From Cyanobacteria bacterium P01_D01_bin.156 (GTDB taxonomy: Bacteria > Cyanobacteriota > Cyanobacteriia > Phormidesmidales > Phormidesmidaceae), in assembly GCA_039024555.1 (NCBI GenBank), contig JBCCQQ010000105.1, positions 1 through 11,731 on the forward strand: a stretch of 11,731 nt of DNA. Direction: 5' to 3'. The notes under the pieces are model-generated. The model was not told where the DNA came from, did not search any database, and saw only the letters and a program-made list of their open reading frames with translations. The translations under genes and the position numbers were made by a program. This document shows positions 127-11,731 of this stretch, one piece after another (position 1 is the stretch's first letter; each line of letters starts with the position of its first letter).

Positions 127-200
127 CGGGATGTAGCGCAGCTTGGTAGCGCACTTCGTTCGGGACGAAGGGGCCGCTGGTTCGAATCCAGTCATCCCGA
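127..200 (+). tRNA. trnP: tRNA-Pro (anticodon CGG); probable integration site of the element
   Basis: Cloverleaf: acceptor CGGGATG/CATCCCG, D-arm GCGC-AGCTTGGTA-GCGC, anticodon stem CTTCG/CGAAG with loop TT-CGG-GA, T-loop GGTTCGAATCC, discriminator A. No encoded CCA. Confidence 0.97.
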
Positions 201-342: not shown

Positions 343-1497
343 ATGAGCAGAGCATTTGCGTCGGTTGCGGGCTTCTCGCCCACTAGCAATGAGGCCAGGC
401 AGAGCACGGTCAAGATTGAAAGTGATGATGGCAGACTCAGATTGCGCTTTAGCTATGGGGGTAAGCGATATGCTATGGCAGTTGGCTTACCGGATTCTAA
501 GGTCAATCGCATTGTGGCACAGCAAAGGGCCGCCCAGATTGAGTTGGATATCGTCTCTGGGAACTTTGACCTTACATTAAAGAAGTACAAGCCACCCAAG
601 GGTGGGGGCAAAAAAGCCGAAGTCTCCCAGGTAACGGGTCTTTTCCAGAAATTTACGAAAGTTCAGACTAAGGCCAAAGGGTTAGAGGTGGGCAGTCTGT
701 GTCGCTACAATGCCACGCTGAAGCATTTGGAAACCTTCTTTTCTAATAAAGAGTCTGAGGCAGTGGAGGAGTCAGATGCGCAGGCATTTGTAGCCTACCT
801 GCGGAAAAATGTCAGTGAGCGGACGGTTAAGGAGTATGTGACGCTGGTGCAATCTTGCTGGGTTTGGGCTGCGAAAAACTTACCAGATAATCCCTGGATA
901 GCGGTCTTGACCCAGGTAAAGCCTGCCCCCAAGCAAAAGGTAAAGCCTTTTACCTTGGAAGAGGTGCAGAAAATCTTAGAGGGGTTCAGAACCGATCGCT
1001 ATTATCGGCACTATGCAGATTTCGTGACATTTCTGTTTGGAACCGGGTGCCGATTTGGAGAAGCGGTCGCCCTACAGTGGAAGCACCTGGCGGATGATTT
1101 CTCAACGGTGTGGATTGGTGAATCGGTGTCTCGGGGGGTGAGGAAGACGACCAAGACAGGTAAGGATCGGACGGTGACACTGACGGGTAAGGTGGCTGAG
1201 ATGTTGGTGGCTCGGAGGTCGAACAAATGGAAGCCAGATGATCTGGTGTTTCCAGCTCCTCGGGGGAAAACAATTAATGATCGAAGCTTTCGGCGGCGGG
1301 CATGGAAGAAGGTTTTGAAAAAATCAGAGATTGAGTATCGAAAGCCTTATGCGACCAGGCATACGGCGATTAGTCATGCGCTTGCCAATGGGGCGAATCC
1401 GCTGGCGGTGGCGGAGCAGACAGGGCATGATCCACAGATCTTGTTTAAGCATTATGCGTCTGTGATTCAGCAGTCAGCAGTAATGGTTGAGTTCTAG
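343..1497 (+). CDS. Tyrosine recombinase/integrase with N-terminal arm-DNA-binding domain (cyanobacterial type)
   Basis: N-terminal three-stranded arm-binding-like segment (GRLRLRFSYGGKRY). Catalytic motifs TGCRFGE (R), KTTKT (K), PYATRHT (YxxR variant of HxxR), QTGH (H) and KHY (Y nucleophile). Confidence 0.95.
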   Translation: MSRAFASVAGFSPTSNEARQSTVKIESDDGRLRLRFSYGGKRYAMAVGLPDSKVNRIVAQQRAAQIELDIVSGNFDLTLKKYKPPKGGGKKAEVSQVTGLFQKFTKVQTKAKGLEVGSLCRYNATLKHLETFFSNKESEAVEESDAQAFVAYLRKNVSERTVKEYVTLVQSCWVWAAKNLPDNPWIAVLTQVKPAPKQKVKPFTLEEVQKILEGFRTDRYYRHYADFVTFLFGTGCRFGEAVALQWKHLADDFSTVWIGESVSRGVRKTTKTGKDRTVTLTGKVAEMLVARRSNKWKPDDLVFPAPRGKTINDRSFRRRAWKKVLKKSEIEYRKPYATRHTAISHALANGANPLAVAEQTGHDPQILFKHYASVIQQSAVMVEF

Positions 1498-1564
1498 ATA
1501 TAGGCCATCTTTAGACGCTGTCAGCGTAGAAAAGTCCAAATATCTACAAAAATGTCTTTATTTG

Positions 1565-1603
1565 CTGACAAACAAAATTTGAGCACCATATTTTGTTTGT
1601 CAG
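1565..1603. promoter_or_regulatory. 14-bp perfect inverted repeat between integrase and NLR gene (operator or terminator)
   Basis: CTGACAAACAAAAT (1565-1578), 11-nt spacer, ATTTTGTTTGTCAG (1590-1603); directly followed by TATGAT (1604-1609). Confidence 0.55.
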
Positions 1604-1741
1604 TATGATATCTATTGATTCGGAAATTTGTGATTATGATAGCGTTTTGAGGCGATTAGTTGTTGAAAAGGTCCAGCTAAATTAGAAGGCTGACTCGATA
1701 TAGACTGTTCTGTCGCTGGTTGTGCATCCGGTTCCCTAGCT

Positions 1742-4700
1742 ATGCCAAATATGCCCCAAGATGAGGAAAAGTTGGCTACTGGCCAGACTAACCAACAAAA
1801 TGTAGCTAATAATTTTGGCCATGTCATTTGGCGGGTAGACAATCTTTCAATCTACTATTCCAGTCCACCAGATACGGAACCACCCCCTCTTCAAGCGACG
1901 AATACTTCAGAAATTGGTCCCAATCCCTATCGAGGGCTGCGAGCATTCCGAGAAGAAGACCATGCCGTTTTCTTTGGTCGCCGTCAGCAGACATATCAGC
2001 TCTGGAAAAGGTTGAAGGCTCTGTATGACCACCCTTCAGCAGTTCGGTTTTTGCCGGTATATGGACCATCGGGTTCAGGTAAGTCGTCGCTAGTGAGAGC
2101 AGGGTTACTGCCGGTAATTGGTCGGCATTCCCTGTCTAGCCAGGAGCATACTCGGGTTGCGATTCTGGAGCCTCGGACTCAACCATTAAAGGGGTTAGCC
2201 TTAGCTTTGGCACGGATGGCAACGGGAGATGATTCGCCTGTGGCAAAGGCGAGAGAGTTTTATAAGGAATTGCAGCAACGAAATAATCAAGCCCAATATG
2301 ACGGGCTATGGCACATTGTCAGATCACTGCCGGGTACTGAATTTTCACCTGTGATTGTGGCGGTAGATCAGTTTGAGGAGATTTACTCTCAGTGTAAGGA
2401 CAAGCGCCAGCAACAGATTTTTATCAATAACCTGCTGACAGCAGCGGCGGATCAGTCGCGGTTGGTAATTGTGGTGGTAACGCTACGCAGCGACTTTTTA
2501 GGAGAAACCCAGGCTCATCCCTGGCTGAATAGGCTGTTTTCTAAGCATGGCTATCTGGTTCCGACAATGAATAAGGTGGAACTGCGACAGGCGATTAGCA
2601 AACCAGCGGAAAAGGCGAGGCATCCGCTAGATACAGCCACGGTGACGCTGTTGATTCAGGAGACTCAGCAGCGGGAAGGGGCGTTGCCACTATTACAGGT
2701 GGCGCTGAGTGATATTTGGAATGGACTGCGGGACGGGAAGGAACCCGGCCAAACTCTGCAAGAGATTGGCGGCGTGGGCGGAGCGTTGGCGAAGAAGGCG
2801 GAAGCAATCTTCCAGGCGTTAACACCGGAGCAACAGGCGATTGCACGGCGGGTATTTTTGGGGGTAATTCAGCTAGGGGAAGGTACTCGGGATACTCGGC
2901 GTCGGGCGCAGGTAAGTGGCTTAGTAGCGCAGCGAACGACGGTTGCTCAGGTGCGGGAAGTGATTGAACGGTTTTCCTGGCGAGAGGCGAGATTGTTGAC
3001 CTTGGCAGCAGACAATGAGGGAAAGGAGACAGTTGAGGTGACCCATGAGGCACTGATTGAACATTGGCGACGTTTAAATGATTGGCTTGACAACAACCGC
3101 GATGACATCCGATTTCAGCGACAACTAGAGTCAGCTATTCAGAACTGGCAGATCAAAGGACAGGCAGAAGGTTTACTATGGCGTCCTCCTGATTTAGATC
3201 TTCTGCAGGACTTCCATCAGCGGGCTGGACAAAATATGACATTGAACCAACTTACTTTCTTCCAGAAATCTCAGTTGGCAGAAAAACGACGCAAGCGAAT
3301 GCGCCAATTAGGGTTGGGTGGTCTGATAGCAGGTCTTACAATTACTACAATAACAACCGCATTGTCTGTGTGGTATGCCCAAGCTGCTAATCGTAGTCGT
3401 GAAGAAAGTATATTACAGGTTGCTCAAGCCCAAATTGAAACCTCTGCAAGGCTGAACGCTGTCGGAGAGAACTATGATGCTCTGATCAATGCTTTGCAAA
3501 GTATTAAGTATCTGGATAAGAACAAGATAGATAGGCCGCTTGTGCTAGCTCAAGCAAAATCTAAAATGCTCTCCTCTTTTCTAGAATTACGGGAAATAAA
3601 ACATATTTATGAATCTAATGTTAATGATCTAAGCTTTAGCCTTGACGGTAACATTATTGCCATTGCTGGTGAAACCACCGCAGCGCTGTGGAGTCCTGAT
3701 GGTGAGCTTATTAACGAGTTCAAACTACGGGGTTTTGAACTAGGAGATGCTGAAGCTATTCGATTTAGCCCTAATGGCAAAACCATTGCCATTTCTACAA
3801 AGGAATTGGTAATGATGTACGGACTTAATGGTGAGTTAATTGACGATATTGAAGTAGACCATGAACACTTTATCCACGACATACACTTCAGTCCAGATGG
3901 AAATGTTCTAGCTGTAGCCTATAGTAGTGGAATAGTAATGCTATGGAATTATCAAAAGCAAATTATCACATATATACCAAAGGACGCTAGTAGAGTTTCA
4001 CCTTTGACCACATTTGTCCTTCCTTCAAATATAATTGACTTCAGTCAAAATGGGGATATCATTGCCACAGCCGATCTCCATGGAAATCCAAAGTTGTGGA
4101 GCCTGGATGGTCAACTCATTGCATCTTTGCAAGGACATAATGGTATCGTTTCCCAGGTACGTTTTAGTCCAGATGGAAACATAGTTGTTACTTCTGGTTC
4201 AGACGAGACCGTTAAGTTATGGCGTCGCGATGGTCAGCTCATAACCTCCTGGCAAAGCCCTATCGGTAGAATATCTGATATACGTTTTAGTCCTGATGGA
4301 AAGATCATTGCCATAGCCAGTTTTGGAGGATCAGTAAGACTATTAACTCATAATGGTCAAATCATTACCTCTTTACAAGGGCATAGTGATCAGGTCAATG
4401 AAGTACGCTTTAGTGCTGATGGCGATATTATTGCTACTGCTAGCGGAGACGGGACAGCAAAGCTATGGAGTCTTGATGGTAAACTCATCGCGTCATTTCA
4501 AGAGAATGGTGTTCCTATTTCGGGTGTACACTTCAGCCCTGATGGAAGCACCATTGCAACTCTGACTAATCCAGATCTGACTAATCCAGCATCTAGAGAC
4601 CCTTCTACAGTATCAGGGGAAAGAAAGGCAACGATCTGGTATTCCGATAAAACTCTAATCCCATCTTTGCGTGTAAATGATGAAATAGTCAATTATTTAG

Positions 4701-5872
4701 ATATCAGCCCTGATGGTAAAACCATCGCTACAGCTGGTGCTGACGGAATAACAAGGTTGTGGGATCTTAATGGTCGGCTCATCACATCCCTTAAAAAACA
4801 CAATGGTGAAGTATATCAGGTAATCTTCAGTTCCGATGGTAACACCATTGCTACAGCCAGTACCGATAAGACAGTAAAGCTGTGGAACTACACTGGAGAA
4901 CTTTTAGTATCTCTACCAGGAGAAGACAATCAGGATGTTCCCTTAGATGACTATGATTTTATATATCCTGATTTTAGCCCCGATGGAAACCTTCTTATAA
5001 CTATTCTTCAGGGTGATGATGATCAAGTAATGTTGTGGAATCGCGACGGTCAATTTATTACATCTTTTGAAAATTCTGGTGAATATTTTTTTAGGCCGCT
5101 CTTCAGCCCAGACAGTAATAATATTTTAACTACTGATAAGAACGGAAAAGTTTATTTATGGAACAAAAAAGGTCAACTTATTACTTCCTTGACTAAACAT
5201 GCTAGCAGAGTGACTTCAGCAGCTTTCAGTTCTGATGGTAATATTGTAACCGCTAGCGAAGATGGGATGATATTTTTGTGGAGTCAAGACGGCCAATTTA
5301 TAACCTCTCTAAAACAACATAGTGATCAGGCAGCTTACAATATATTCTTTGCCCCTGATAGTAGCTTTGTAGGTGCGACTATCAATGATGAGACAAAATT
5401 ATGGAACCTACGTGGAGAAATCGTTGCTTCTATGAAAGGTAGATATTCAGGTTTAAGTTCTGACAGTAATATTATTGCTACTGTTGATAGTGGCACTGTA
5501 AAACTCTGGGGATTCAGAGGGAATTTTATAAATTCTATTAAAGGAACTAATGTTCGATTCAACCCTGGTGGTAATACTATTTCTATTTTTGATAACGGAA
5601 CTGTGGAACTATGGAGCATTGATGGGACTCCTTTGATTTCCCTTGAGGAACAGAATAGTGAACTTAGATTTATAAGATTAGTTCCTGGTGAGGATACAAT
5701 TATTACGAATAATGCACAAGGTATAGTAAGACTTTGGAAATGGAACCCTGATTGGGTTGTAAACAAAGCATGCCAACAAATACAAGCACACTTTTCTAAA
5801 AAATCTCCTGATTTGGAAGAAGATAAGAATTTATGCATTGATACAGCTTCAGATTCTGAAAGTGTTTTTTGA
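1742..5872 (+). CDS. NLR-like STAND NTPase (nSTAND1 type) with N-terminal amyloid-like motif, predicted TM helix and ~17 WD40 repeats
   Basis: PYRGLRAF...FFGR N-cap, Walker A GPSGSGKSS (aa108), Walker B VIVAVDQFEE (aa204), TLRSDF, GALPLLQ, EVTHEALI..W motifs. Hydrophobic segment aa523-546 after KRRKRMR. Repeated GH/FSPDG/ATAS.D.T.KLW WD40 units. Confidence 0.93.
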   Translation: MPNMPQDEEKLATGQTNQQNVANNFGHVIWRVDNLSIYYSSPPDTEPPPLQATNTSEIGPNPYRGLRAFREEDHAVFFGRRQQTYQLWKRLKALYDHPSAVRFLPVYGPSGSGKSSLVRAGLLPVIGRHSLSSQEHTRVAILEPRTQPLKGLALALARMATGDDSPVAKAREFYKELQQRNNQAQYDGLWHIVRSLPGTEFSPVIVAVDQFEEIYSQCKDKRQQQIFINNLLTAAADQSRLVIVVVTLRSDFLGETQAHPWLNRLFSKHGYLVPTMNKVELRQAISKPAEKARHPLDTATVTLLIQETQQREGALPLLQVALSDIWNGLRDGKEPGQTLQEIGGVGGALAKKAEAIFQALTPEQQAIARRVFLGVIQLGEGTRDTRRRAQVSGLVAQRTTVAQVREVIERFSWREARLLTLAADNEGKETVEVTHEALIEHWRRLNDWLDNNRDDIRFQRQLESAIQNWQIKGQAEGLLWRPPDLDLLQDFHQRAGQNMTLNQLTFFQKSQLAEKRRKRMRQLGLGGLIAGLTITTITTALSVWYAQAANRSREESILQVAQAQIETSARLNAVGENYDALINALQSIKYLDKNKIDRPLVLAQAKSKMLSSFLELREIKHIYESNVNDLSFSLDGNIIAIAGETTAALWSPDGELINEFKLRGFELGDAEAIRFSPNGKTIAISTKELVMMYGLNGELIDDIEVDHEHFIHDIHFSPDGNVLAVAYSSGIVMLWNYQKQIITYIPKDASRVSPLTTFVLPSNIIDFSQNGDIIATADLHGNPKLWSLDGQLIASLQGHNGIVSQVRFSPDGNIVVTSGSDETVKLWRRDGQLITSWQSPIGRISDIRFSPDGKIIAIASFGGSVRLLTHNGQIITSLQGHSDQVNEVRFSADGDIIATASGDGTAKLWSLDGKLIASFQENGVPISGVHFSPDGSTIATLTNPDLTNPASRDPSTVSGERKATIWYSDKTLIPSLRVNDEIVNYLDISPDGKTIATAGADGITRLWDLNGRLITSLKKHNGEVYQVIFSSDGNTIATASTDKTVKLWNYTGELLVSLPGEDNQDVPLDDYDFIYPDFSPDGNLLITILQGDDDQVMLWNRDGQFITSFENSGEYFFRPLFSPDSNNILTTDKNGKVYLWNKKGQLITSLTKHASRVTSAAFSSDGNIVTASEDGMIFLWSQDGQFITSLKQHSDQAAYNIFFAPDSSFVGATINDETKLWNLRGEIVASMKGRYSGLSSDSNIIATVDSGTVKLWGFRGNFINSIKGTNVRFNPGGNTISIFDNGTVELWSIDGTPLISLEEQNSELRFIRLVPGEDTIITNNAQGIVRLWKWNPDWVVNKACQQIQAHFSKKSPDLEEDKNLCIDTASDSESVF
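4561..4589 (+). repeat. In-frame 15-bp tandem duplication within a WD40 loop (LTNPD-LTNPA)
   Basis: TCTGACTAATCCAG at 4561-4574 and 4576-4589. Confidence 0.85.
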
Positions 5873-6024
5873 AATTTTACGATCATTAAAATATTTACCT
5901 TCTAAGCGCAACCGCCTCGAAGAGAGGGGCAGACCCACCACAGTCAAGATTTCTATTTCCCTTCTGCTTAAATTGAACGAATTCAAGCTAAAAAGATTGT
6001 GAAAAAAATTCTGGTAAAGACATA

Positions 6025-6059
6025 GAGTATCAGCTCTAAAAAGGAAAGAACTGATACTC
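6025..6059 (-). terminator. Stem-loop 3' of the MACPF gene, between convergent genes
   Basis: Minus strand: GAGTATCAGTTCT / AGAGCTGATACTC, a 13-bp stem with one G-U pair, 15 nt past the stop and followed by TATGTCTTT. Confidence 0.6.
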
Positions 6060-6074
6060 CACTTTATTTATAAA

Positions 6075-7760
6075 CTAGAACAGCTCACGTCGAATAAACA
6101 ACACCCAGACCTCCCAAGTCTCATGCCGCTTTGCATGAGACCGGAAATCAGCAAAATACCACCACCGATTATCCCGCTCATAGGGATATACCTGAACAAT
6201 ATCCCCCCGATCATGCTCCTGAATATCACCTCCTAACGCTCGAAAACCAGCAATTGTGGCAATCCAGCTACGGGTCGAAAACCCCGTATTCACCCGATTG
6301 CCCGTATACTTCCGCAGCACCATCGCCGAGCCACCCCGCACCCGAATACTCCCATTCACATCCAGCTTGCCTTTAGGGTTCGTGGTACCAATACCTACCT
6401 CACCATTCACCAGCAGATCCGGCGTGCCCATCAGGTGTAGATTCTTGCCATCGTTGAACTTAGCCCAAACCTGATTTCCCTGTTCAGGCTCCCGAATTTC
6501 TAGGTCGTTGCCATCGCTCCGCAGCAGCCAGTCCCCTCGTTTTGCTTGAAACCCATCATCCGCAATCACCTTACCGCTGACGCGAATATCGCCATTCTCA
6601 TTCGGGTTCACCGCACTTTGCAGCAGGTTTACCTGCTCACGCACCTTGGCCAGTTGTTCTTCCAGTTGCTTCAGCATCATGTTTTCCTCCGAAAATTCAG
6701 GTAAGGGTTCAGTCGCGACAAAATAAGACGTGGGCAGTTCACAGGCATCGAACGAGGCTCGACAGGCTTTAGCTCGACGCTGCAACTCATTCAGCTGTTC
6801 GCTGACAAGTTCAAAATCCTGCCGATAGCGGTCTTTCTTAGCAATTTGCTCCTCCGGTGTCAGCACCAGATGGTCTTCAAAGCTGTAGAAGTTATCCAGC
6901 ACATAGCGCAGGTTGGCGCGGTAGTCCTTGTAGCTCCAGTACTTCAGCCCTAGTTCCTCCATCATCGCGAGCCGATGGGCGCGGGAGAAGGCACTTTCAC
7001 CTACTGCCGGGGGTAGTGGCACCGTCTTGCGATACTCCTCGAAAATGCCCTGGAACTCAACAGGATGATTCTTCACCAGCTTCGGGAAGCTCTTCGCCTG
7101 AGCAATCATTTCCTCCAGCGTGGTTTCCACCGGGTCGCCACTGCCGCCGCTTTGCAGCACCGTGACCTTGAGTTCTTTGTTTGAGATCGCCTGCTTCAGC
7201 TTCAGGTCTAAACTGCCCGATGCCTTAAACAGGCCATAGCTAGCACTCACCGCCACAGCGATATCTTGCTGCTCCTGCTTGCTGAGGGTTTTAATCTCAA
7301 TTAGCCCGTAGTAGCTGCCACCCGTGATCACTCCGGCCATATACTCTGGCCCGTAGTGACTCTCAAACCAGTCCCAGCCTCGTTCAGCCAAAAGCTTGTA
7401 AATCTCTGGCTTAAACCGAGGATTACGAATCATCAAATTGGGGTTCTTGACCTCCACGCTCACCAGCAAATAGGTGCTGTACTGGTTCACTGATTGCTGC
7501 TGGGCGTAGTTCACCTCTGCCGAAGCACTGAATAGACCAAAGCCCACAGAGGCCGACGCTGAAACATTCAGCATTTTACTGAGTTCTACCGAACTGGTAA
7601 TCTGTTGCAGATTAAACCGCACTCGCTGTCCCAACTGCTGGTTGTCAATTAGCGAAGTAGGAGGGTCATAGGCGATGGCATAACCATAGCTTTCCCCCAT
7701 CTCAGCATCCACGCCTTTACCAAGAGTGGCACCGGCAGGTATTGGACGAATTGTGGCCAT
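6075..7760 (-). CDS. MACPF/CDC-like pore-forming domain protein with coiled coil and C-terminal tail-fibre-like region
   Basis: N-terminal LGKGVD; MACPF-like signature YGPEY-x6-GG (aa136-148); two alternating amphipathic TMH-like segments (aa64-85, 167-186); coiled coil ~aa361-384; fibre-type VGIGTTNPKGKLDVNGSIRV motif; SD AAGGAG at 7769-7774. Confidence 0.8.
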   Translation of the reverse strand: MATIRPIPAGATLGKGVDAEMGESYGYAIAYDPPTSLIDNQQLGQRVRFNLQQITSSVELSKMLNVSASASVGFGLFSASAEVNYAQQQSVNQYSTYLLVSVEVKNPNLMIRNPRFKPEIYKLLAERGWDWFESHYGPEYMAGVITGGSYYGLIEIKTLSKQEQQDIAVAVSASYGLFKASGSLDLKLKQAISNKELKVTVLQSGGSGDPVETTLEEMIAQAKSFPKLVKNHPVEFQGIFEEYRKTVPLPPAVGESAFSRAHRLAMMEELGLKYWSYKDYRANLRYVLDNFYSFEDHLVLTPEEQIAKKDRYRQDFELVSEQLNELQRRAKACRASFDACELPTSYFVATEPLPEFSEENMMLKQLEEQLAKVREQVNLLQSAVNPNENGDIRVSGKVIADDGFQAKRGDWLLRSDGNDLEIREPEQGNQVWAKFNDGKNLHLMGTPDLLVNGEVGIGTTNPKGKLDVNGSIRVRGGSAMVLRKYTGNRVNTGFSTRSWIATIAGFRALGGDIQEHDRGDIVQVYPYERDNRWWYFADFRSHAKRHETWEVWVLFIRRELF

Positions 7761-7904
7761 TGTTATTTCTCCTTAAGATTTCAAGGGTGTAAAAAAGCGC
7801 AGCCTTCCCCTTCCTGAGCAGCAGAGGGCCGCTCAGCAGAGGCAAACTATGCAAAGAGGAAGGAAGTTTTGGTAAACTGGCTCTAATGCAGAGAACCAGT
7901 TTGA

Positions 7905-8087
7905 CTATTCAGCCAATGAGTTTGACTCCACGGCTTCAGTGGAAGGCACGTCGCTAAGGAGCATCTCACCGACGACGATACAGATCTCTTGAATGCCTCC
8001 CTTTGTAAACAGAATCAGGACAGACAGAACCATCTGTAAGGCCATCATCTGACGATGGGAAAGGCGACGACGCTTCGGTTGTTTCAT
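7905..8087 (-). CDS. Small putative membrane protein, co-oriented upstream of the MACPF gene
   Basis: 60 aa with basic N-terminus (KQPKRRR), hydrophobic core MMALQMVLSVLILF and acidic tail. Lies between a candidate -10 (8121-8126) and the MACPF gene. Confidence 0.5.
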   Translation of the reverse strand: MKQPKRRRLSHRQMMALQMVLSVLILFTKGGIQEICIVVGEMLLSDVPSTEAVESNSLAE

Positions 8088-8147
8088 GGCATTTCAGCCC
8101 CCGTTGAACGCTACAATTCCTTTATAGGAGGCGGGTCCCGCTGTTCT

Positions 8148-8202
8148 GCCGTAGTAGACCCGGAGTAAAACCGGACTTCTCCAGGACTTTTCCAGGAGTT
8201 TG
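8148..8202. repeat. Five imperfect 11-bp phased direct repeats (candidate operator array)
   Basis: GCCGTAGTAGA, CCCGGAGTAAA, ACCGGACTTCT, CCAGGACTTTT, CCAGGAGTTTG; the GGA core sits at 8162, 8173, 8184 and 8195. Confidence 0.7.
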
Positions 8203-8299
8203 CTTAACCATGTCAAATGACGTGATTTTGTTGATTCAGGAGCATCACTTTCAGAAATCACCGATATACTGAAGGGCAAACTACTATGCAAGATGTCAC

Positions 8300-8647
8300 A
8301 TGTCGGATCGTACTCTCCAAGTTCATCCCAGCCGTATCGAAATAGTCAAAAAAGCTTACAAGACCAGTGGTCATACCAACCAAATTGAGTTTGCCAGAGA
8401 AGTTGGCTTCAGTGACGACGCCCTCAGGGCATTCTTGAATGGCAAACCCGTATATCGCGAAACCTTTATGAAATTCTGCGAAGCGCTGGAACTTGATCAC
8501 AAAGAGCTGCTTGGGGAAGCAGCACCTAATAACTCTTCAAATGCGACAACCGGCACACAGATTAATCAGTCTGTTGAAAACAATTATGGTTTTGTGATTG
8601 GCACTGTCGGTACGCTAAATCAGAACAACTCAGACAAAAGTTCTTAA
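8300..8647 (+). CDS. XRE-like HTH protein (resembling the N-terminal HTH of cyanobacterial STAND proteins) with C-terminal amyloid-like motif
   Basis: RTLQV...QIEFAREVGFS..AL.AFLNGKPV..ETF.KFCEALELD HTH pattern, low-complexity N/S linker, then QINQSVENNYGFVIGTVGTL. Confidence 0.85.
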   Translation: MSDRTLQVHPSRIEIVKKAYKTSGHTNQIEFAREVGFSDDALRAFLNGKPVYRETFMKFCEALELDHKELLGEAAPNNSSNATTGTQINQSVENNYGFVIGTVGTLNQNNSDKSS

Positions 8648-8683
8648 CGCCCACAAACAGTCCACAAAACCGAGTACAAATCA

Positions 8684-9319
8684 CTACAGCTTGTGTCCTA
8701 TCCAAACAACTTTACCCATAATGCTTAGACTACTGGGCCTATCCGACAATTCAATTGAAAAAGTCTCATAAGCAGGATTGTCACTGAGCACTTGAAGCGT
8801 ATTATCTACCCAATATTGCAATCGCTTGATCAGCAATCGATCCCCCAACTTAAGCAAGTAAACCCCGTGGTCAATGGCATCCAGGTCTCGGATATTGGTG
8901 TCTACCAAGATCAAATCGCCGACATTCAGCGTGGGCTCCATGCTTTCATCCTTGACCTGAGTCAGGAGAAGATTTTCAAATGAAGTTGGAAACTGGGCCT
9001 TTAGCCAATCTGCCTCAAAAGCCAAGGTTTCTTTGTAAATGTATTTCTGAGCGAGAATATCCGTTGAGTTTTCGGAAGCTGTCTGCCCGGCTGCCAACCA
9101 CTCCAGACTGACGTCAGCGGCGCGGGCAATAGCGAGAAGCACAGGTCGGGTTGGCTCACTTTGCCCATTAAGATACTGGCGCAGTACCGTATCCGAGAAA
9201 CCGCACTCACGGGCAAAACCTCGAATGCTTTTATCTCCAACTGCTTTTTTCAATCGACTGGGAAAATCATCAGACTCGTTAACATCAGACTGCTTCTTTT
9301 TGGATGATGGATTACTCAT
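8684..9319 (-). CDS. CI/LexA-like repressor (XRE HTH + S24 peptidase-like domain)
   Basis: HTH SIRGFARECGFSDTVLRQYLNGQSEP...WLAAG; S24 motifs ESMEPTL..GD.ILVD (Ser) and LLIKRL (Lys), LSDNPAY, I.GKVVW. Confidence 0.92.
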   Translation of the reverse strand: MSNPSSKKKQSDVNESDDFPSRLKKAVGDKSIRGFARECGFSDTVLRQYLNGQSEPTRPVLLAIARAADVSLEWLAAGQTASENSTDILAQKYIYKETLAFEADWLKAQFPTSFENLLLTQVKDESMEPTLNVGDLILVDTNIRDLDAIDHGVYLLKLGDRLLIKRLQYWVDNTLQVLSDNPAYETFSIELSDRPSSLSIMGKVVWIGHKL

Positions 9320-9349
9320 AAGGCATCAGCATATTGTCAACGACTGCAA

Positions 9350-9378
9350 ATTATAGCGCTTGACATGCAATTTTTTAA
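9350..9378 (-). promoter_or_regulatory. Leftward promoter for the repressor gene
   Basis: Perfect TATAAT on minus strand (9355-9350); TTAAAA 17 bp upstream (9378-9373); overlaps the rightward promoter. Confidence 0.55.
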
Positions 9379-9388
9379 TTGCTAATTT
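9360..9388 (+). promoter_or_regulatory. Rightward sigma70-type promoter for the ner-xis(-rep) operon, with a palindrome in the spacer
   Basis: TTGACA (9360-9365), 17-bp spacer, TG-c-TAATTT (9383-9388). The spacer holds GCAATT-TTTT-AATTGC (9367-9382). Confidence 0.75.
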
Positions 9389-9419
9389 CATCGGTATGTT
9401 GATGTAGCTTTGTAATCTT

Positions 9420-9719
9420 ATGCACGTAGAAGATATTAAAGCAGCTTTGCGAAAACAAGGCTGGACTTTGGCAAGCATTGCCAAAGAGTTAGAGATTGGC
9501 CCCTCGGCTGTCTCCCACGCTTTGACCAGACAGCGCTCTCGCCGGATTGAGCGCGTGATTGCGAGCAAGCTTGGGCTTGCCCCCCGAGAGATATGGCCCC
9601 AACGATACAAAGGAGGAAAAGCTCGTGAGCGAATTTGTCAGCAAACAGGAGGCATTGGAATATCTCAAACTCAGCAGCACCACTCTGAAAAAGTACCGCT
9701 TGAAAGGGTTGCTGGTTGA
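9420..9719 (+). CDS. Ner/Nlp-family (phage Mu Ner-like) DNA-binding protein
   Basis: MHVEDIKAALRKQG.TL...SHAL...ERVIA.KLG..PREIWPQRY follows the Ner pattern (H.ADI.AALRK.G ... EIWPSRY); divergent from the CI-like gene. Confidence 0.88.
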   Translation: MHVEDIKAALRKQGWTLASIAKELEIGPSAVSHALTRQRSRRIERVIASKLGLAPREIWPQRYKGGKARERICQQTGGIGISQTQQHHSEKVPLERVAG

Positions 9720-9921
9720 AGGCATCCATTGGGTTCGCATTAATAGTCGCTGCATTCGCTACAACCAGGAACTGATCAAAGACTGGGTACAAAATCGTCA
9801 CGATCCGGCAGCCCATCAACGAGCCATCGAGATTTATCAAGCCGGTTTACTCAGCAACCAAATCAAGTCATCTAAAGCGACTGTAAAATCGCGCTCCAGG
9901 CCCCCAGTCAAGCACCATTGA
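9625..9921 (+). CDS. Excisionase-like/MerR-type winged-helix DNA-binding protein (GTG start)
   Basis: Same frame as track ORF 9559-9921, but SD AGGAGG (9611-9616) precedes GTG at 9625. FVSKQEALEYLKLSSTTLKKYR..G.L.EGIHW...RYN...IKDW is Xis-like. Confidence 0.75.
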   Translation: MSEFVSKQEALEYLKLSSTTLKKYRLKGLLVEGIHWVRINSRCIRYNQELIKDWVQNRHDPAAHQRAIEIYQAGLLSNQIKSSKATVKSRSRPPVKHH

Positions 9922-9986
9922 CAACTGCACGTTTCATCACGTTGTTGATGGCTTCATCGAGCTATATCCAGAATTAAACGCTCAAT

Positions 9987-10019
9987 AAAAAACACCCAGC
10001 TGATTACCAGTTAGGGTGT
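9987..10019 (-). terminator. Intrinsic terminator on the antisense strand
   Basis: Minus strand ACACCCTAACTG-GTAAT-CAGCTGGGTG hairpin followed by TTTTTT. Confidence 0.55.
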
Positions 10020-10117
10020 CTGACCGTGAACTTTAGTTTTTCGAGCTGGGTTAATTTACTTTTCTGATTGGTTTTACCAGAACCGACCAGGCCATTAACC
10101 TGCTACTAAATTTGTGT
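9987..10117 (-). ncRNA. Candidate counter-transcribed antisense RNA upstream of the replication gene
   Basis: Minus-strand promoter TAGACA (10151-10146), 16 bp, TGc-TATAGT (10129-10124), plus the minus-strand terminator at 9987-10019. The 5' end is approximate. Confidence 0.45.
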
Positions 10118-10237
10118 TCTTCAACTATAGCAAACTAGCTCAAAATGTCTACAAAGATAGGACCCTCATCAATATAAATTGAGCCCAGTAGCAGGTCCAG
10201 ATGGATAGCCCAGCTCCCAACCCATCAGGAGCTGACC

Positions 10238-11731
10238 ATGGCACAGTACCAATATTCAGGCCGATCGCATCCCTGCCCGATCTGCGATCGCACCAAAGAT
10301 CAAGACTGCCGCTGGAATGAGGAGGTGGTCTTCTGCCACACCCACATTGATCAGGACGTACAGGTAGCGGGCTACGTCTACCGGGGCGTAACCGCTGATG
10401 GCCTGTGGGGACAATACTTCGCAGCGGCTGCCGAGCCCGCCAAGCCGGTGCGGCCCCGCCGCAAACAGGACTATTTCTACCCCAGTCGGGACGGTCAACC
10501 ATTGGTGAGGGTGACCCGAGTGGATCAGGGCAATGGCTCGAAGTATTTTGTGCAGCAGCGCTGGGATGGGCAACATTGGATCAAGGGGCTTACCCCAGAG
10601 GTGAAGCAGCAGGTACCGATCTATCGCTATCGGGAAGTGCAGGGTGCGATCGCAGCCGGACGCCCTATTTGGATGGTGGAAGGAGAAGGTTGCGCTGATG
10701 CACTCTGGCAACTGGGGGTTCCGGCGACGACGACCCTGGGTGGGTCCAAAAAATATCGCAGCTATGGGAACTATAACGCGGATCTGAAGGACGCTCGCCT
10801 GGTGCTGTGCCCCGATCAGGATCAGGTGGGGCTGGCCCACATGGCGGAGGTCTATCAGGATTTTCCCCAGGCGCAGTGGTGCTATGTCTACCCGGATAGC
10901 TGGCGCTGGCAGAATTTGCCCAAGCATGGCGGTCTGGATATTGCTGATTGGATTGCGGATGGGGCGACGGCGGAACAGATTCGGGCAGCGGTGGGGGCGC
11001 GGCGACAGCTTGACCCGCCAGGGGCCAACCAATCCCTGGATGTGCCAGCGCTCCAGGCCCAGATTCGGGATTATCTGGCCCAGGCCCCCTCGGAGCTGGA
11101 GCTATCGGGGCAGGTGGTGCAGTGGCATCGGGAGGTGGGGCTCTCGGCCAGAGATCTGTGGAGTTTGATTAAGCCGATCCAGGCGGAGCTGGAGCAGACA
11201 GAAGAAAGAGATGATCGCATCGCTGAAATCAGTCAGCTCTTAAAGATTGGGGATTATGAGTTACAGCTCAACGACTATCTCCACCCCGACCTGGCGGAAC
11301 CGCTGACTCGTATTGCCAACTGGATTGGGGCCACCCCAGCGGCCATGCTGGTGACCCTGCTGCCGGTGGCGGCATCCCTGCTGCAGATGGGGACGGAGTT
11401 GGAAATTGATGCAGGGATGGGCTTCTATGTGCCGCCGATTCTGTTTACCGGGCTGGTGGCCCCCTCGGGTAGTAAGAAGAGCCCCATCCAGCGGCAGATT
11501 CTGAAGCCCCTATCACGATTGCAGGAAGAGGCAGATCAGGACTATGACTGGGCGGTTTCAGAGTATGAGGTGGAGCTGCGAGAGTGGGAGCTGACGAAGA
11601 AGGAGGACAGGTGCGATCGCCCCCGGAAACCCACCCCACGGGAGTATCACACCTCGGATGCGACTCGAGAGGCACTGGCGCGAATTCAGTCGCAGCAGCC
11701 GACGCGGGGGATTTTGGTGACGCCGGATGAG
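10238..11731 (+). CDS. Replication protein: Zn-finger + TOPRIM primase + DUF3987/YfjI-like NTPase (3' truncated by window end)
   Basis: Hand-translated open frame from ATG 10238 (SD AGGAG 10227-10231): CPICDRTKDQDC...FCH Zn finger; WMVEGEGCADAL and LCPDQD TOPRIM motifs; GLDIADW; LVAPSGSKKSP P-loop-like; SDATREAL; GILVTPDE. Not in the ORF track because no stop falls inside the window. Confidence 0.9.
   Translation, partial: MAQYQYSGRSHPCPICDRTKDQDCRWNEEVVFCHTHIDQDVQVAGYVYRGVTADGLWGQYFAAAAEPAKPVRPRRKQDYFYPSRDGQPLVRVTRVDQGNGSKYFVQQRWDGQHWIKGLTPEVKQQVPIYRYREVQGAIAAGRPIWMVEGEGCADALWQLGVPATTTLGGSKKYRSYGNYNADLKDARLVLCPDQDQVGLAHMAEVYQDFPQAQWCYVYPDSWRWQNLPKHGGLDIADWIADGATAEQIRAAVGARRQLDPPGANQSLDVPALQAQIRDYLAQAPSELELSGQVVQWHREVGLSARDLWSLIKPIQAELEQTEERDDRIAEISQLLKIGDYELQLNDYLHPDLAEPLTRIANWIGATPAAMLVTLLPVAASLLQMGTELEIDAGMGFYVPPILFTGLVAPSGSKKSPIQRQILKPLSRLQEEADQDYDWAVSEYEVELREWELTKKEDRCDRPRKPTPREYHTSDATREALARIQSQQPTRGILVTPDE

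Follow-up and report, generated by a model that had tools for sequence, protein, structure and literature searches.

Bacterial NOD-like receptors (NLRs) and their effectors can be linked by short amyloid motifs. In the preprint text of Dyrka et al. (2020, 10.1101/2020.01.06.895854), the Bell/NLR pairs with motifs BASS1-10 have the motif C-terminal in the small protein and N-terminal in the NLR, and most of the described pairs are colinear neighbors. The NLR amyloid effectors listed in that text and in the available text of Ibarlosa et al. (2024, 10.1101/2024.11.07.622273) are membrane-targeting or enzymatic, namely Bell, HeLo, hydrolase, TIR, CHAT, cyclase and phosphorylase. The nSTAND1 family of nucleoside triphosphatases (NTPases) was named in the text of Kaur et al. 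(2021, PMC8195603), where ECF-like helix-turn-helix (HTH) domains in TRADD-N systems, which are described with no amyloid motif, are taken to hint at a response through transcription. Neither HTH nor helix-turn-helix occurs as a term in the preprint text of Dyrka et al. (2020), in PMC12261475 or in PMC9815663, and the terms amyloid, MACPF and perforin are absent from Kaur et al. (2020). The top-ranked matches in the full-text literature contained no relay from an NLR through an amyloid motif to a transcription factor, no HTH effector in NLR amyloid signaling and no MACPF protein acting as an antiphage effector. Here, we analyzed a window of 11,731 nucleotides (nt), which is the whole contig JBCCQQ010000105.1 of the 6.6-Mb genome of Cyanobacteria bacterium P01_D01_bin.156 (G000). 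The window encodes an NLR-like protein whose N-terminal head matches the C-terminal tail of a separate Xre-type HTH protein, and a MACPF-fold protein is encoded between them. As far as sequence comparison goes, this pair is best filed as a form of NLR-associated amyloid-type signaling with a DNA-binding effector, and a link to the MACPF-fold protein would be a reasonable extension.

The sensor, the HTH protein and their motifs are located as follows.

1742..5872, plus strand: NLR-like sensor of 1376 amino acids (aa), with a short head, an nSTAND1 NTPase and WD40 propellers (Pfam).
1754..1855, plus strand: NLR head motif (residues 5-38), core QQNVANNFGHVIWRVDNL; it matches the HTH tail, is kept in P0212-P0214 and contains no Pfam domain.
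8300..8647, plus strand: 115-aa protein with an Xre-type HTH (residues 1-72), a linker and a C-terminal tail motif (Pfam HTH_26, AlphaFold2 model, Foldseek).
8525..8626, plus strand: HTH tail motif (residues 76-109), core NQSVENNYGFVIGTVGTL; it is conserved in homologues and has a predicted local distance difference test (pLDDT) score below 50.

When NLR residues 5-35 were aligned with HTH residues 76-106, 12 of 31 positions were identical (BLASTP E 3e-4), and the skeleton common to head and tail was Q-x-V-x-N-N-[FY]-G-x-V-I-x-x-V-x-x-L. The HTH gene starts 2428 nt past the NLR stop codon on the same strand, in agreement with an earlier note on this DNA, which had placed an HTH protein with a tail matching the NLR head about 2.4 kb past the NLR gene. 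In composition-preserving shuffles, the Smith-Waterman score of 55 was reached by 0 of 20,000 shuffled tails and by 2 of 20,000 shuffled heads. Head and tail are reciprocal best non-self matches among the 66,379 six-frame open reading frames (ORFs) of the genome, and a motif profile found just two matches in G000, the NLR head and the HTH tail. No other candidate partner for the NLR head was found in the genome. The predicted complex of NLR residues 1-60 and HTH residues 66-115 had a score of 0.01, which is evidence neither for nor against contact. We regard the head-tail match as real but modest, and it takes its weight from where the motif lies within both proteins.

On the NLR side, the nSTAND1 domain (PF20703) covers residues 62-476 with E 2.6e-108 and 363.5 bits against a cut-off of 27.1, and the WD40 propellers follow. 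The head comprises the 61 residues ahead of the NTPase, and residues 1-63 gave no Pfam match even at E 10, which upholds the earlier description of an NLR carrying only a short motif and no N-terminal effector domain. The proteins P0212-P0214, which keep the head motif, are close orthologues of the NLR. A scan of the NLR with PADLOC returned only weak partial matches. Among the nSTAND1 relatives, of which we considered the best 120 of 1203 at E <= 1e-20 (P0211-P0330), 116 have the NTPase start at most 110 residues from the N-terminus (median 64), as in the NLR of the window, where the head takes the place of an effector domain. The short heads of these relatives are rich in G, N, Q, V and I and fall into few types; the type found in the window occurs in 4 of the 120 listed (P0211-P0214). 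Other types among them are GDRNQxIGQVLGGxVVYVSGGQA-like heads (40 of 120) and SAIISGxGNxVVIYQYQ-like heads (36 of 120). The WD40 part of the NLR gene (3500-5900) has a G+C content of 0.35-0.43 compared with 0.50-0.56 in the NTPase part, and its nucleotide identity to a related island, L044, is 72-77% compared with 83% for the NTPase part. The lower G+C and greater divergence of the WD40 part fit a fast-evolving or exchanged sensor region.

On the HTH side, PHROG 2967, a transcriptional regulator, matches the 115-aa protein with E 4.8e-6. In the AlphaFold2 model, residues 1-70 were confident and residues 76-112 had a pLDDT below 50, that is, they were modeled as disordered. The best Foldseek matches of this model were the Xre/Cro-type DNA binders HipB, 434 repressor and lambda cI, with template modeling (TM) scores of 0.62-0.74 on the target and a root-mean-square deviation of 1.5 Å over 56 residues for the best match. 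No defense-family match for the HTH protein was given by PADLOC. Three homologues, P0002-P0004, share 60-72% identity with it, and residues G85-S91, N95, G97, F98, I100-T102, G104 and T105 are invariant across four homologues of the HTH protein. Outside the HTH core, no part of the protein is more conserved than the tail, which a linker connects to the globular domain.

To place the HTH domain among NLR-associated modules, we considered its family in both fused and stand-alone forms. A profile of the HTH finds matches in 39 of 61 related genomes, the window's own genome included; except for the gene of G000 itself, these matches extend over the HTH portion of the profile and are mostly situated in long open frames. 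Two fused proteins were read, both with the HTH at the start, followed by NB-ARC and pentapeptide repeats in one and by an AAA_22/TPR layout in the other. In a search of 1.84 billion representatives, 410 proteins match the HTH profile at E <= 0.001, and the best 150 of these 410 divide into 41 of at least 400 aa and 109 of less than 400 aa. Of the 41 listed long representatives, 18 have NB-ARC or NACHT and 4 have AAA_35, and one of the NB-ARC proteins also has TIR_2. Another 11 of the 41 have TPR or WD40 matches only, counted for most of them among the best five matches. The other long representatives comprise a protein with CHAT and AAA_5, one with TRADD-like_N and pentapeptide repeats, a pentapeptide-repeat protein, three with the HTH only and two without a match. 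The HTH family also occurs as two or three tandem copies or fused to conflict modules (P0062, P0063, P0064, P0149, P0176).

Stand-alone HTH proteins with a tail make up 10 of the 109 listed representatives shorter than 400 aa and form about 10 clusters at 50% identity. Their tails take the form Q-x-[VIA]-x-x-N-x-G-[FLIK]-[VM]-I-G-x-[VI]-x-G after a variable acidic linker; eight were recognized by this pattern (P0004, P0124, P0065, P0066, P0069, P0071, P0072, P0135) and two by eye (P0073, P0067). Considering that the same HTH exists in fused, all-in-one proteins and in split form, it is a plausible NLR effector judging by its domain context. The same fused-versus-split argument was used for the Bell, TIR2, CHAT, hydrolase and cyclase effectors in the preprint text of Dyrka et al. 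(2020, 10.1101/2020.01.06.895854).

Head-tail pairs of a second kind were found at seven loci (L019, L020, L022, L026, L066, L067, L069), where a protein of 149-163 aa is encoded directly upstream of an nSTAND1 gene. In these loci the tail of the small protein (e.g. GVQINQTVTNNEGQVIGQMTGG) resembles the head of the nSTAND1 protein that follows (RQTVDQNQGQAIAQMVGG). Going by size, position and recall only, we take these small proteins to be Bell-like; a Pfam scan of one of them, that of L019, gave no match. The HTH tail of the window is close to the small-protein tails of these loci in its first half, GTQINQSVENNYG. A profile built from the seven pairs ranked the HTH tail first in the genome of the window, though with an E value of only 0.057, and did not find the NLR head. 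Because of this E value and the missed head, we treat the pair in the window as a separate variant.

Between the NLR and the HTH gene lie two genes on the opposite strand, followed by the region that separates them from the HTH gene.

6075..7760, minus strand: 561-aa MACPF/CDC-fold protein (profile against the PDB, AlphaFold2 model, Foldseek).
7905..8087, minus strand: 60-aa ORF with a basic N-terminus, one hydrophobic stretch and an acidic tail; it lies upstream of the MACPF gene and is conserved in both L016 and L044.
8088..8299, no strand: divergent intergenic region that separates the 60-aa ORF from the HTH gene (read directly and aligned with L016 and L044).
8162..8200, plus strand: four GGASTW copies at exact 11-bp spacing, a candidate operator (pattern search, with a pattern chosen post hoc).

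The 561-aa protein belongs to no Pfam, NCBIfam, PHROG or PADLOC family. The Pfam MACPF model did not match it, nothing in Pfam matched at E <= 0.01, and the sole match at E <= 10 was FapA with 0.36. A profile of 17 homologues, on the other hand, matches the pore chain of Aegerolysin-L, 9uj0, with E 4.8e-10. The AlphaFold2 model has a pLDDT of 70.6 and 58 Foldseek matches in the PDB at E <= 0.001; the roughly 40 that are listed are all MACPF/CDC proteins, including stonustoxin, 9uj0, Bacteroides and Photorhabdus proteins, complement C8/C9, perforin and cholesterol-dependent cytolysins. The MACPF signature reads Y/W-G-x-x-F/Y-x6-G-G. Residues 136-148 of the protein, YGPEYMAGVITGG, fit this signature and align with the same stretch of 9uj0, and Y136, G137, G147 and G148 are invariant across the 17 homologues. 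By its modeled fold, the 561-aa protein is a MACPF/CDC protein, and on the profile match, the Foldseek matches and the signature positions the MACPF identity given in the earlier note is correct. The protein starts directly with the MACPF domain, which is followed by a long coiled coil, a fiber-like stretch and a C-terminal beta domain, and no N-terminal signal sequence was seen by eye. The fiber-like stretch resembles the Bdellovibrio fiber proteins 8ond (E 1.9e-4), 8ol4, 8oml and 8on4. The motif GIGTTNPxxKLDVNG of the C-terminal third (window positions 6075-6500) recurs in many unrelated proteins of 300-980 aa. The fiber-like stretch and beta domain suggest a putative surface-binding module on a protein that by eye lacks a signal sequence.

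Both L016 and L044 retain the 60-aa ORF (90% over 60 aa), and its comparison with L016 counted 20 synonymous and 14 non-synonymous codon differences. It had no family match, Pfam, PHROG and PADLOC included, and no copy of it was found next to the more distant homologues of the MACPF gene in L045-L047. Both minus-strand genes, the 60-aa ORF and the 561-aa ORF, face away from the HTH gene, so the divergent arrangement of the HTH gene and a unit of small ORF and MACPF gene is as it had been described.

We then compared the gene arrangement with other genomes. The three genes for the NLR, the HTH protein and the MACPF protein were seen together only in the window, and each pair of them was seen once elsewhere: NLR with MACPF in L044, MACPF with HTH in L016 and HTH with NLR in G511. 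For the linkage in other genomes that the earlier note had set as a test, the outcome is mixed. Window positions 6079-8605, from the MACPF stop codon to near the HTH stop codon, align with L016 as one block with 81% nucleotide identity. L016 is a 5.1-kb metagenome contig from a second lineage, and its flanks, which carry a porin-like gene at one end and a PIN-type toxin-antitoxin pair at the other, are unrelated to the window. Because the block has sharp borders and unrelated flanks, the MACPF gene, the 60-aa ORF and the HTH-tail gene travel as a unit. We also considered that the HTH gene could be part of the island's adjacent repressor module and rejected this, since the homology of L016 stops at 8605 and its neighboring genes differ.

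L044, a contig labeled as Leptolyngbya, is a close copy of the same island with the integrase, the NLR, an insertion sequence (IS) element, the MACPF gene and the 60-aa ORF. The head of its NLR is AVNQTNQQNVATNYGHVIWRVENL. Homology to the window ends at about 8208, where a DDE_3 transposase begins, and no HTH-tail gene was found in the genome of L044, where an intact MACPF ORF is kept. L044 has two IS elements (2684-3787 and 3-386): a rve-type transposase lies between the NLR and MACPF genes, and the DDE_3 element cuts the divergent promoter region. From this arrangement, the system in L044 looks to be decaying. In G511, a 165-aa HTH-tail gene is followed, after a gap of 5 nt, by an nSTAND1 gene in the same orientation (E 1.4e-68), and by gene order this is the canonical pair layout with the HTH replacing Bell. 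On the contig of this pair, L058, positions 1512-2627 upstream of the HTH-tail gene contain 860 nt without a long ORF and then a divergent gene, truncated at the contig end, for a protein that starts like a signal peptide; this divergent gene could be a regulated target of the G511 pair.

A locus search with the HTH alignment returned nothing in genome contigs or viral contigs, and one with a MACPF alignment of 8 closer sequences returned nothing in viral contigs. L017, a second metagenome locus, was discarded as an unrelated gene with 30% identity. No further HTH-tail gene was found in a class sample of 401 genomes or in a 401-genome sample of the order of G430, where the searches gave only small-protein/nSTAND1 pairs, and the short HTH frames L038 and L043 have no such tail. 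Weak matches of the motif profile in the class sample (L021, L023, L024, L028, L030, L031, L034, L035) were noise on inspection; L025, L027, L029, L032 and L033 were left out of this inspection, and L037 repeats L023.

Several results weigh against a partnership of the NLR with a DNA-binding, tail-bearing effector. The Pfam HTH_26 match of the 115-aa protein is at threshold level (E 1.1e-4, 22.8 bits against a cut-off of 22), and no Foldseek match of its model reached E 0.001, the best having E 0.03. Genome-wide, the E value of the head-tail match is only 0.4-0.6. A profile of four HTH tails alone does not recover the NLR head, and the seven-pair profile described above likewise leaves head and tail unconnected. 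The NLR and HTH genes of the window are separated by the two opposite-strand genes, the cassette in L016 has no NLR on its contig, the genome of L044 has an NLR and no HTH gene, and in G511 the similarity of tail and head is not above chance, since 3672 of 20,000 shuffles reach the score. Apart from the threshold-level HTH assignment and the G511 shuffles, these points would be expected if the match were fortuitous, a resemblance of two N/Q/G-rich low-complexity stretches, with the HTH protein a local Xre-type repressor of the toxin cassette whose disordered tail serves another purpose and the NLR acting alone or with an unseen partner. We consider this explanation improbable, given that the shuffled motifs hardly ever reached the observed score, that the tail is so conserved outside the HTH core and recurs on about 10 HTH clusters with variable linkers, that one tailed HTH gene abuts an nSTAND1 gene and that the head has no other candidate partner in the genome. 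On balance, the NLR and the HTH-tail protein are probably partners.

As judged from the gene content, a split NLR system with the HTH protein as its effector, carried as cargo of a tRNA-integrated island, is the best explanation of the locus. In the relay that we propose, the nSTAND1-WD40 protein would be the sensor. We infer that binding of a trigger and oligomerization would gather the N-terminal heads, which would fold into a cross-beta template, and that signaling would run from this template to the C-terminal tail of the 115-aa HTH protein, whose conversion would lead the HTH protein to polymerize. The clustered HTH domains, presumably bound to DNA at the divergent promoter, would change transcription of the operon of the 60-aa ORF and the MACPF gene, and the products would be a 60-aa membrane-type peptide and a cytoplasmic MACPF-fold pore-former. 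The pore-former, if toxic, could kill or lyse the cell, for example as an abortive defense against phage. As for the sign of regulation, we propose activation by induced proximity, not loss of repression.

The last steps were weighed on the gene arrangement, which is the sole basis of the proposed control of MACPF transcription by the HTH protein. In the region 8088-8299, a scan with the sigma-70 consensus called no promoter-like site, and a general repeat search did not list the GGASTW array as a family. Since the pattern was picked after the sequence was seen, the shuffle control overstates the array. The phased repeats of the earlier note were recovered as four same-face copies at 11-bp spacing, but with a post hoc pattern and with a single conserved copy, as the third copy alone is conserved in L016 and L044. 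This poor conservation counts against the proposed relay. Activation is favored because the fused relatives imply clustering, because direct repeats on one face of the helix would be better suited to a polymer than to a dimer, and because the genome of L044 tolerates an intact MACPF gene without an HTH gene. The last argument is weakened by the IS element of L044 at about 8208, which may itself have silenced the operon. If the NLR and the HTH protein are partners, we lean toward the HTH protein controlling the divergent operon. The whole relay, with either sign of regulation, stays tentative and somewhat short of an even chance; the relay of the earlier note is partly supported, in that the NLR-HTH link gains from the fused forms, the tailed HTH clusters and G511, and the MACPF step has the gene arrangement in its favor. 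The full version, in which NLR amyloid templating onto a stand-alone transcription factor makes it polymerize and switch on a cytoplasmic MACPF pore-former, would by itself be rather unlikely.

Alternatively, the NLR and the HTH protein could be true partners whose HTH, after polymerizing, directly coats or silences host or invader DNA, for example, or regulates other genes, and the MACPF pair could be separate cargo, e.g. an anti-competitor toxin. Two loci are in line with such a separation and also count against the MACPF step: no MACPF-domain homologue is present in G511, and the distant MACPF homologue L046 has unrelated genes around it, among which neither a regulator nor an NLR was read. 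A further point against the MACPF step is L047, where an actinobacterial MACPF homologue (34% identity) has a divergent LuxR/GerE-type regulator upstream (8642-9676, 9920-12052), which reads as another MACPF-family member adjoining its own HTH regulator. Furthermore, the fiber-like stretch with its match to 8ond and the beta domain suggest cell-surface targeting, and the HTH family is fused to many conflict modules (CHAT, TRADD-like_N, TIR_2). However, the block of MACPF gene, 60-aa ORF and HTH gene keeps sharp borders in two settings, which is hard to explain if the HTH is irrelevant to the operon, and by eye the MACPF protein has no signal sequence. We find this separation of the MACPF pair, too, to have a low probability. 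Least of all do we expect that the HTH-tail protein acts on the NLR, as a brake or decoy capping the head or as an upstream DNA sensor seeding the NLR: a motif common to both proteins gives no direction and Xre-type proteins, which bind DNA, could sense it, but all systems described in the texts of Dyrka et al. and Ibarlosa et al. put the NLR upstream, with the tail-bearing protein as its effector, and the fused forms place the HTH N-terminally, the effector position in described NLRs.

In our preferred reading, the NLR-HTH pair and the divergent operon are carried by a mobile island, whose other features are the following.

127..200, plus strand: tRNA-Pro(CGG) (ARAGORN), the likely integration site of the island, with the integrase gene directly after it.
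343..1497, plus strand: tyrosine integrase at the left end of the island (Pfam Phage_integrase E 1.3e-20, Arm-DNA-bind_2; PHROG 1 integrase E 3e-51).
8684..9319, minus strand: CI/LexA-like repressor with HTH_3 and Peptidase_S24 (Pfam; PHROG 4 E 2.4e-35), part of the island context and outside the cassette.

The gene order across the window is tRNA-Pro, integrase, NLR, MACPF-fold ORF, 60-aa ORF, HTH, repressor, Ner-like HTH, excisionase-like ORF and primase/DUF3987. The right part (8684-11731) holds the S24 repressor, the Ner-like HTH_35, the excisionase-like ORF and the primase/DUF3987 gene, which runs off the contig end. By this gene content, the whole contig is a tRNA-Pro-integrated mobile element; the NLR, MACPF, 60-aa ORF and HTH genes are its cargo, bounded by the integrase on the left and the repressor on the right. 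A single Logan contig of 7,377 nt, from a second assembly of a run that may be the window's own source, spans 1458-8834; because one contig spans these positions, the gene order is not an assembly join. The HTH_35 ORF (9420-9719) and the excisionase-like HTH_17 ORF (9559-9921) overlap by about 160 nt in different frames, and one of their starts is probably mis-set.

If the effector is a DNA-binding protein, a transcriptional output would be added to NLR amyloid signaling. The pair would then be a simple case of a bacterial transcription factor under templated aggregation, a prion-like transcription switch in a prokaryotic immune or cell-death pathway, and the HTH-tail proteins would count as amyloid-controlled effectors of a new class, alongside the cyanobacterial HTH-NLR fusions. 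The role of many cyanobacterial HTH-NB-ARC/NACHT proteins would also be hinted at. If the MACPF protein is the final effector, a perforin-type pore-former would be used from inside the cell, a use that was absent from the 12 top-ranked matches of a literature search. The cassette is compact, with four genes in about 7 kb.

Compared with known systems, the 561-aa protein is like other MACPF/CDC proteins (9uj0, 4wvm stonustoxin, 3kk7 from Bacteroides, 2qp2 from Photorhabdus, perforin, C8/C9) in its fold, its profile similarity to 9uj0 and its signature positions. It differs from them in having no Pfam MACPF match and, by eye, no signal sequence, in a C-terminal half made of a coiled coil, a fiber-like stretch and a beta domain, and in a gene that lies beside those of an HTH-tail regulator and an NLR. 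Proteins of the MalT and AfsR type are STAND transcription regulators with a fused DNA-binding domain, which in MalT is a C-terminal HTH of the LuxR type. The cyanobacterial HTH-NB-ARC/NACHT proteins are closer to the window, in that they have the same HTH family N-terminal to NB-ARC, NACHT or AAA_35 with TPR, WD40 or pentapeptide repeats. Oligomerization of such fused HTH-NTPases would cluster their DNA-binding domains. In contrast with these fused STAND regulators, the window has its sensor and its HTH on two proteins, and the common motif is all that links them.

The Bell/NLR BASS pairs of the Dyrka et al. preprint resemble the pair in the window in several respects: a short motif of G, N, Q and hydrophobic residues is C-terminal in a small protein and N-terminal in a STAND-repeat protein encoded within 5 kb, the host is cyanobacterial, and the effector domain is also found fused to NLRs. 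The layout of the seven small-protein/nSTAND1 loci is that of the Bell/NLR pairs in the same preprint. The pair in the window differs in its effector, which is an Xre-type HTH and not Bell, alpha/beta-hydrolase, TIR2, CHAT or guanylate cyclase, in its NTPase, which is nSTAND1 and outside the NACHT/NB-ARC set of the Dyrka screen, and in that its genes are not neighbors. With Bab/Agp of E. coli (BASS11), as given in the available text of Ibarlosa et al. (2024, 10.1101/2024.11.07.622273), it shares two proteins with a common amyloid motif and a proposed death on phage infection, whereas in the window a DNA-binding protein bears the tail and the pore-former carries no motif, as the two motif matches in G000 indicate. 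Finally, the proposed mechanism is like that of the fungal NWD2/HET-S system, as outlined in the preprint of Dyrka et al. (2020), in that NLR oligomerization would template an amyloid motif on a separate effector and in that both fused and split versions exist; the fungal effectors are membrane-targeting (HeLo) or enzymatic, whereas the effector proposed here would bind DNA, with the pore-former one step further on.

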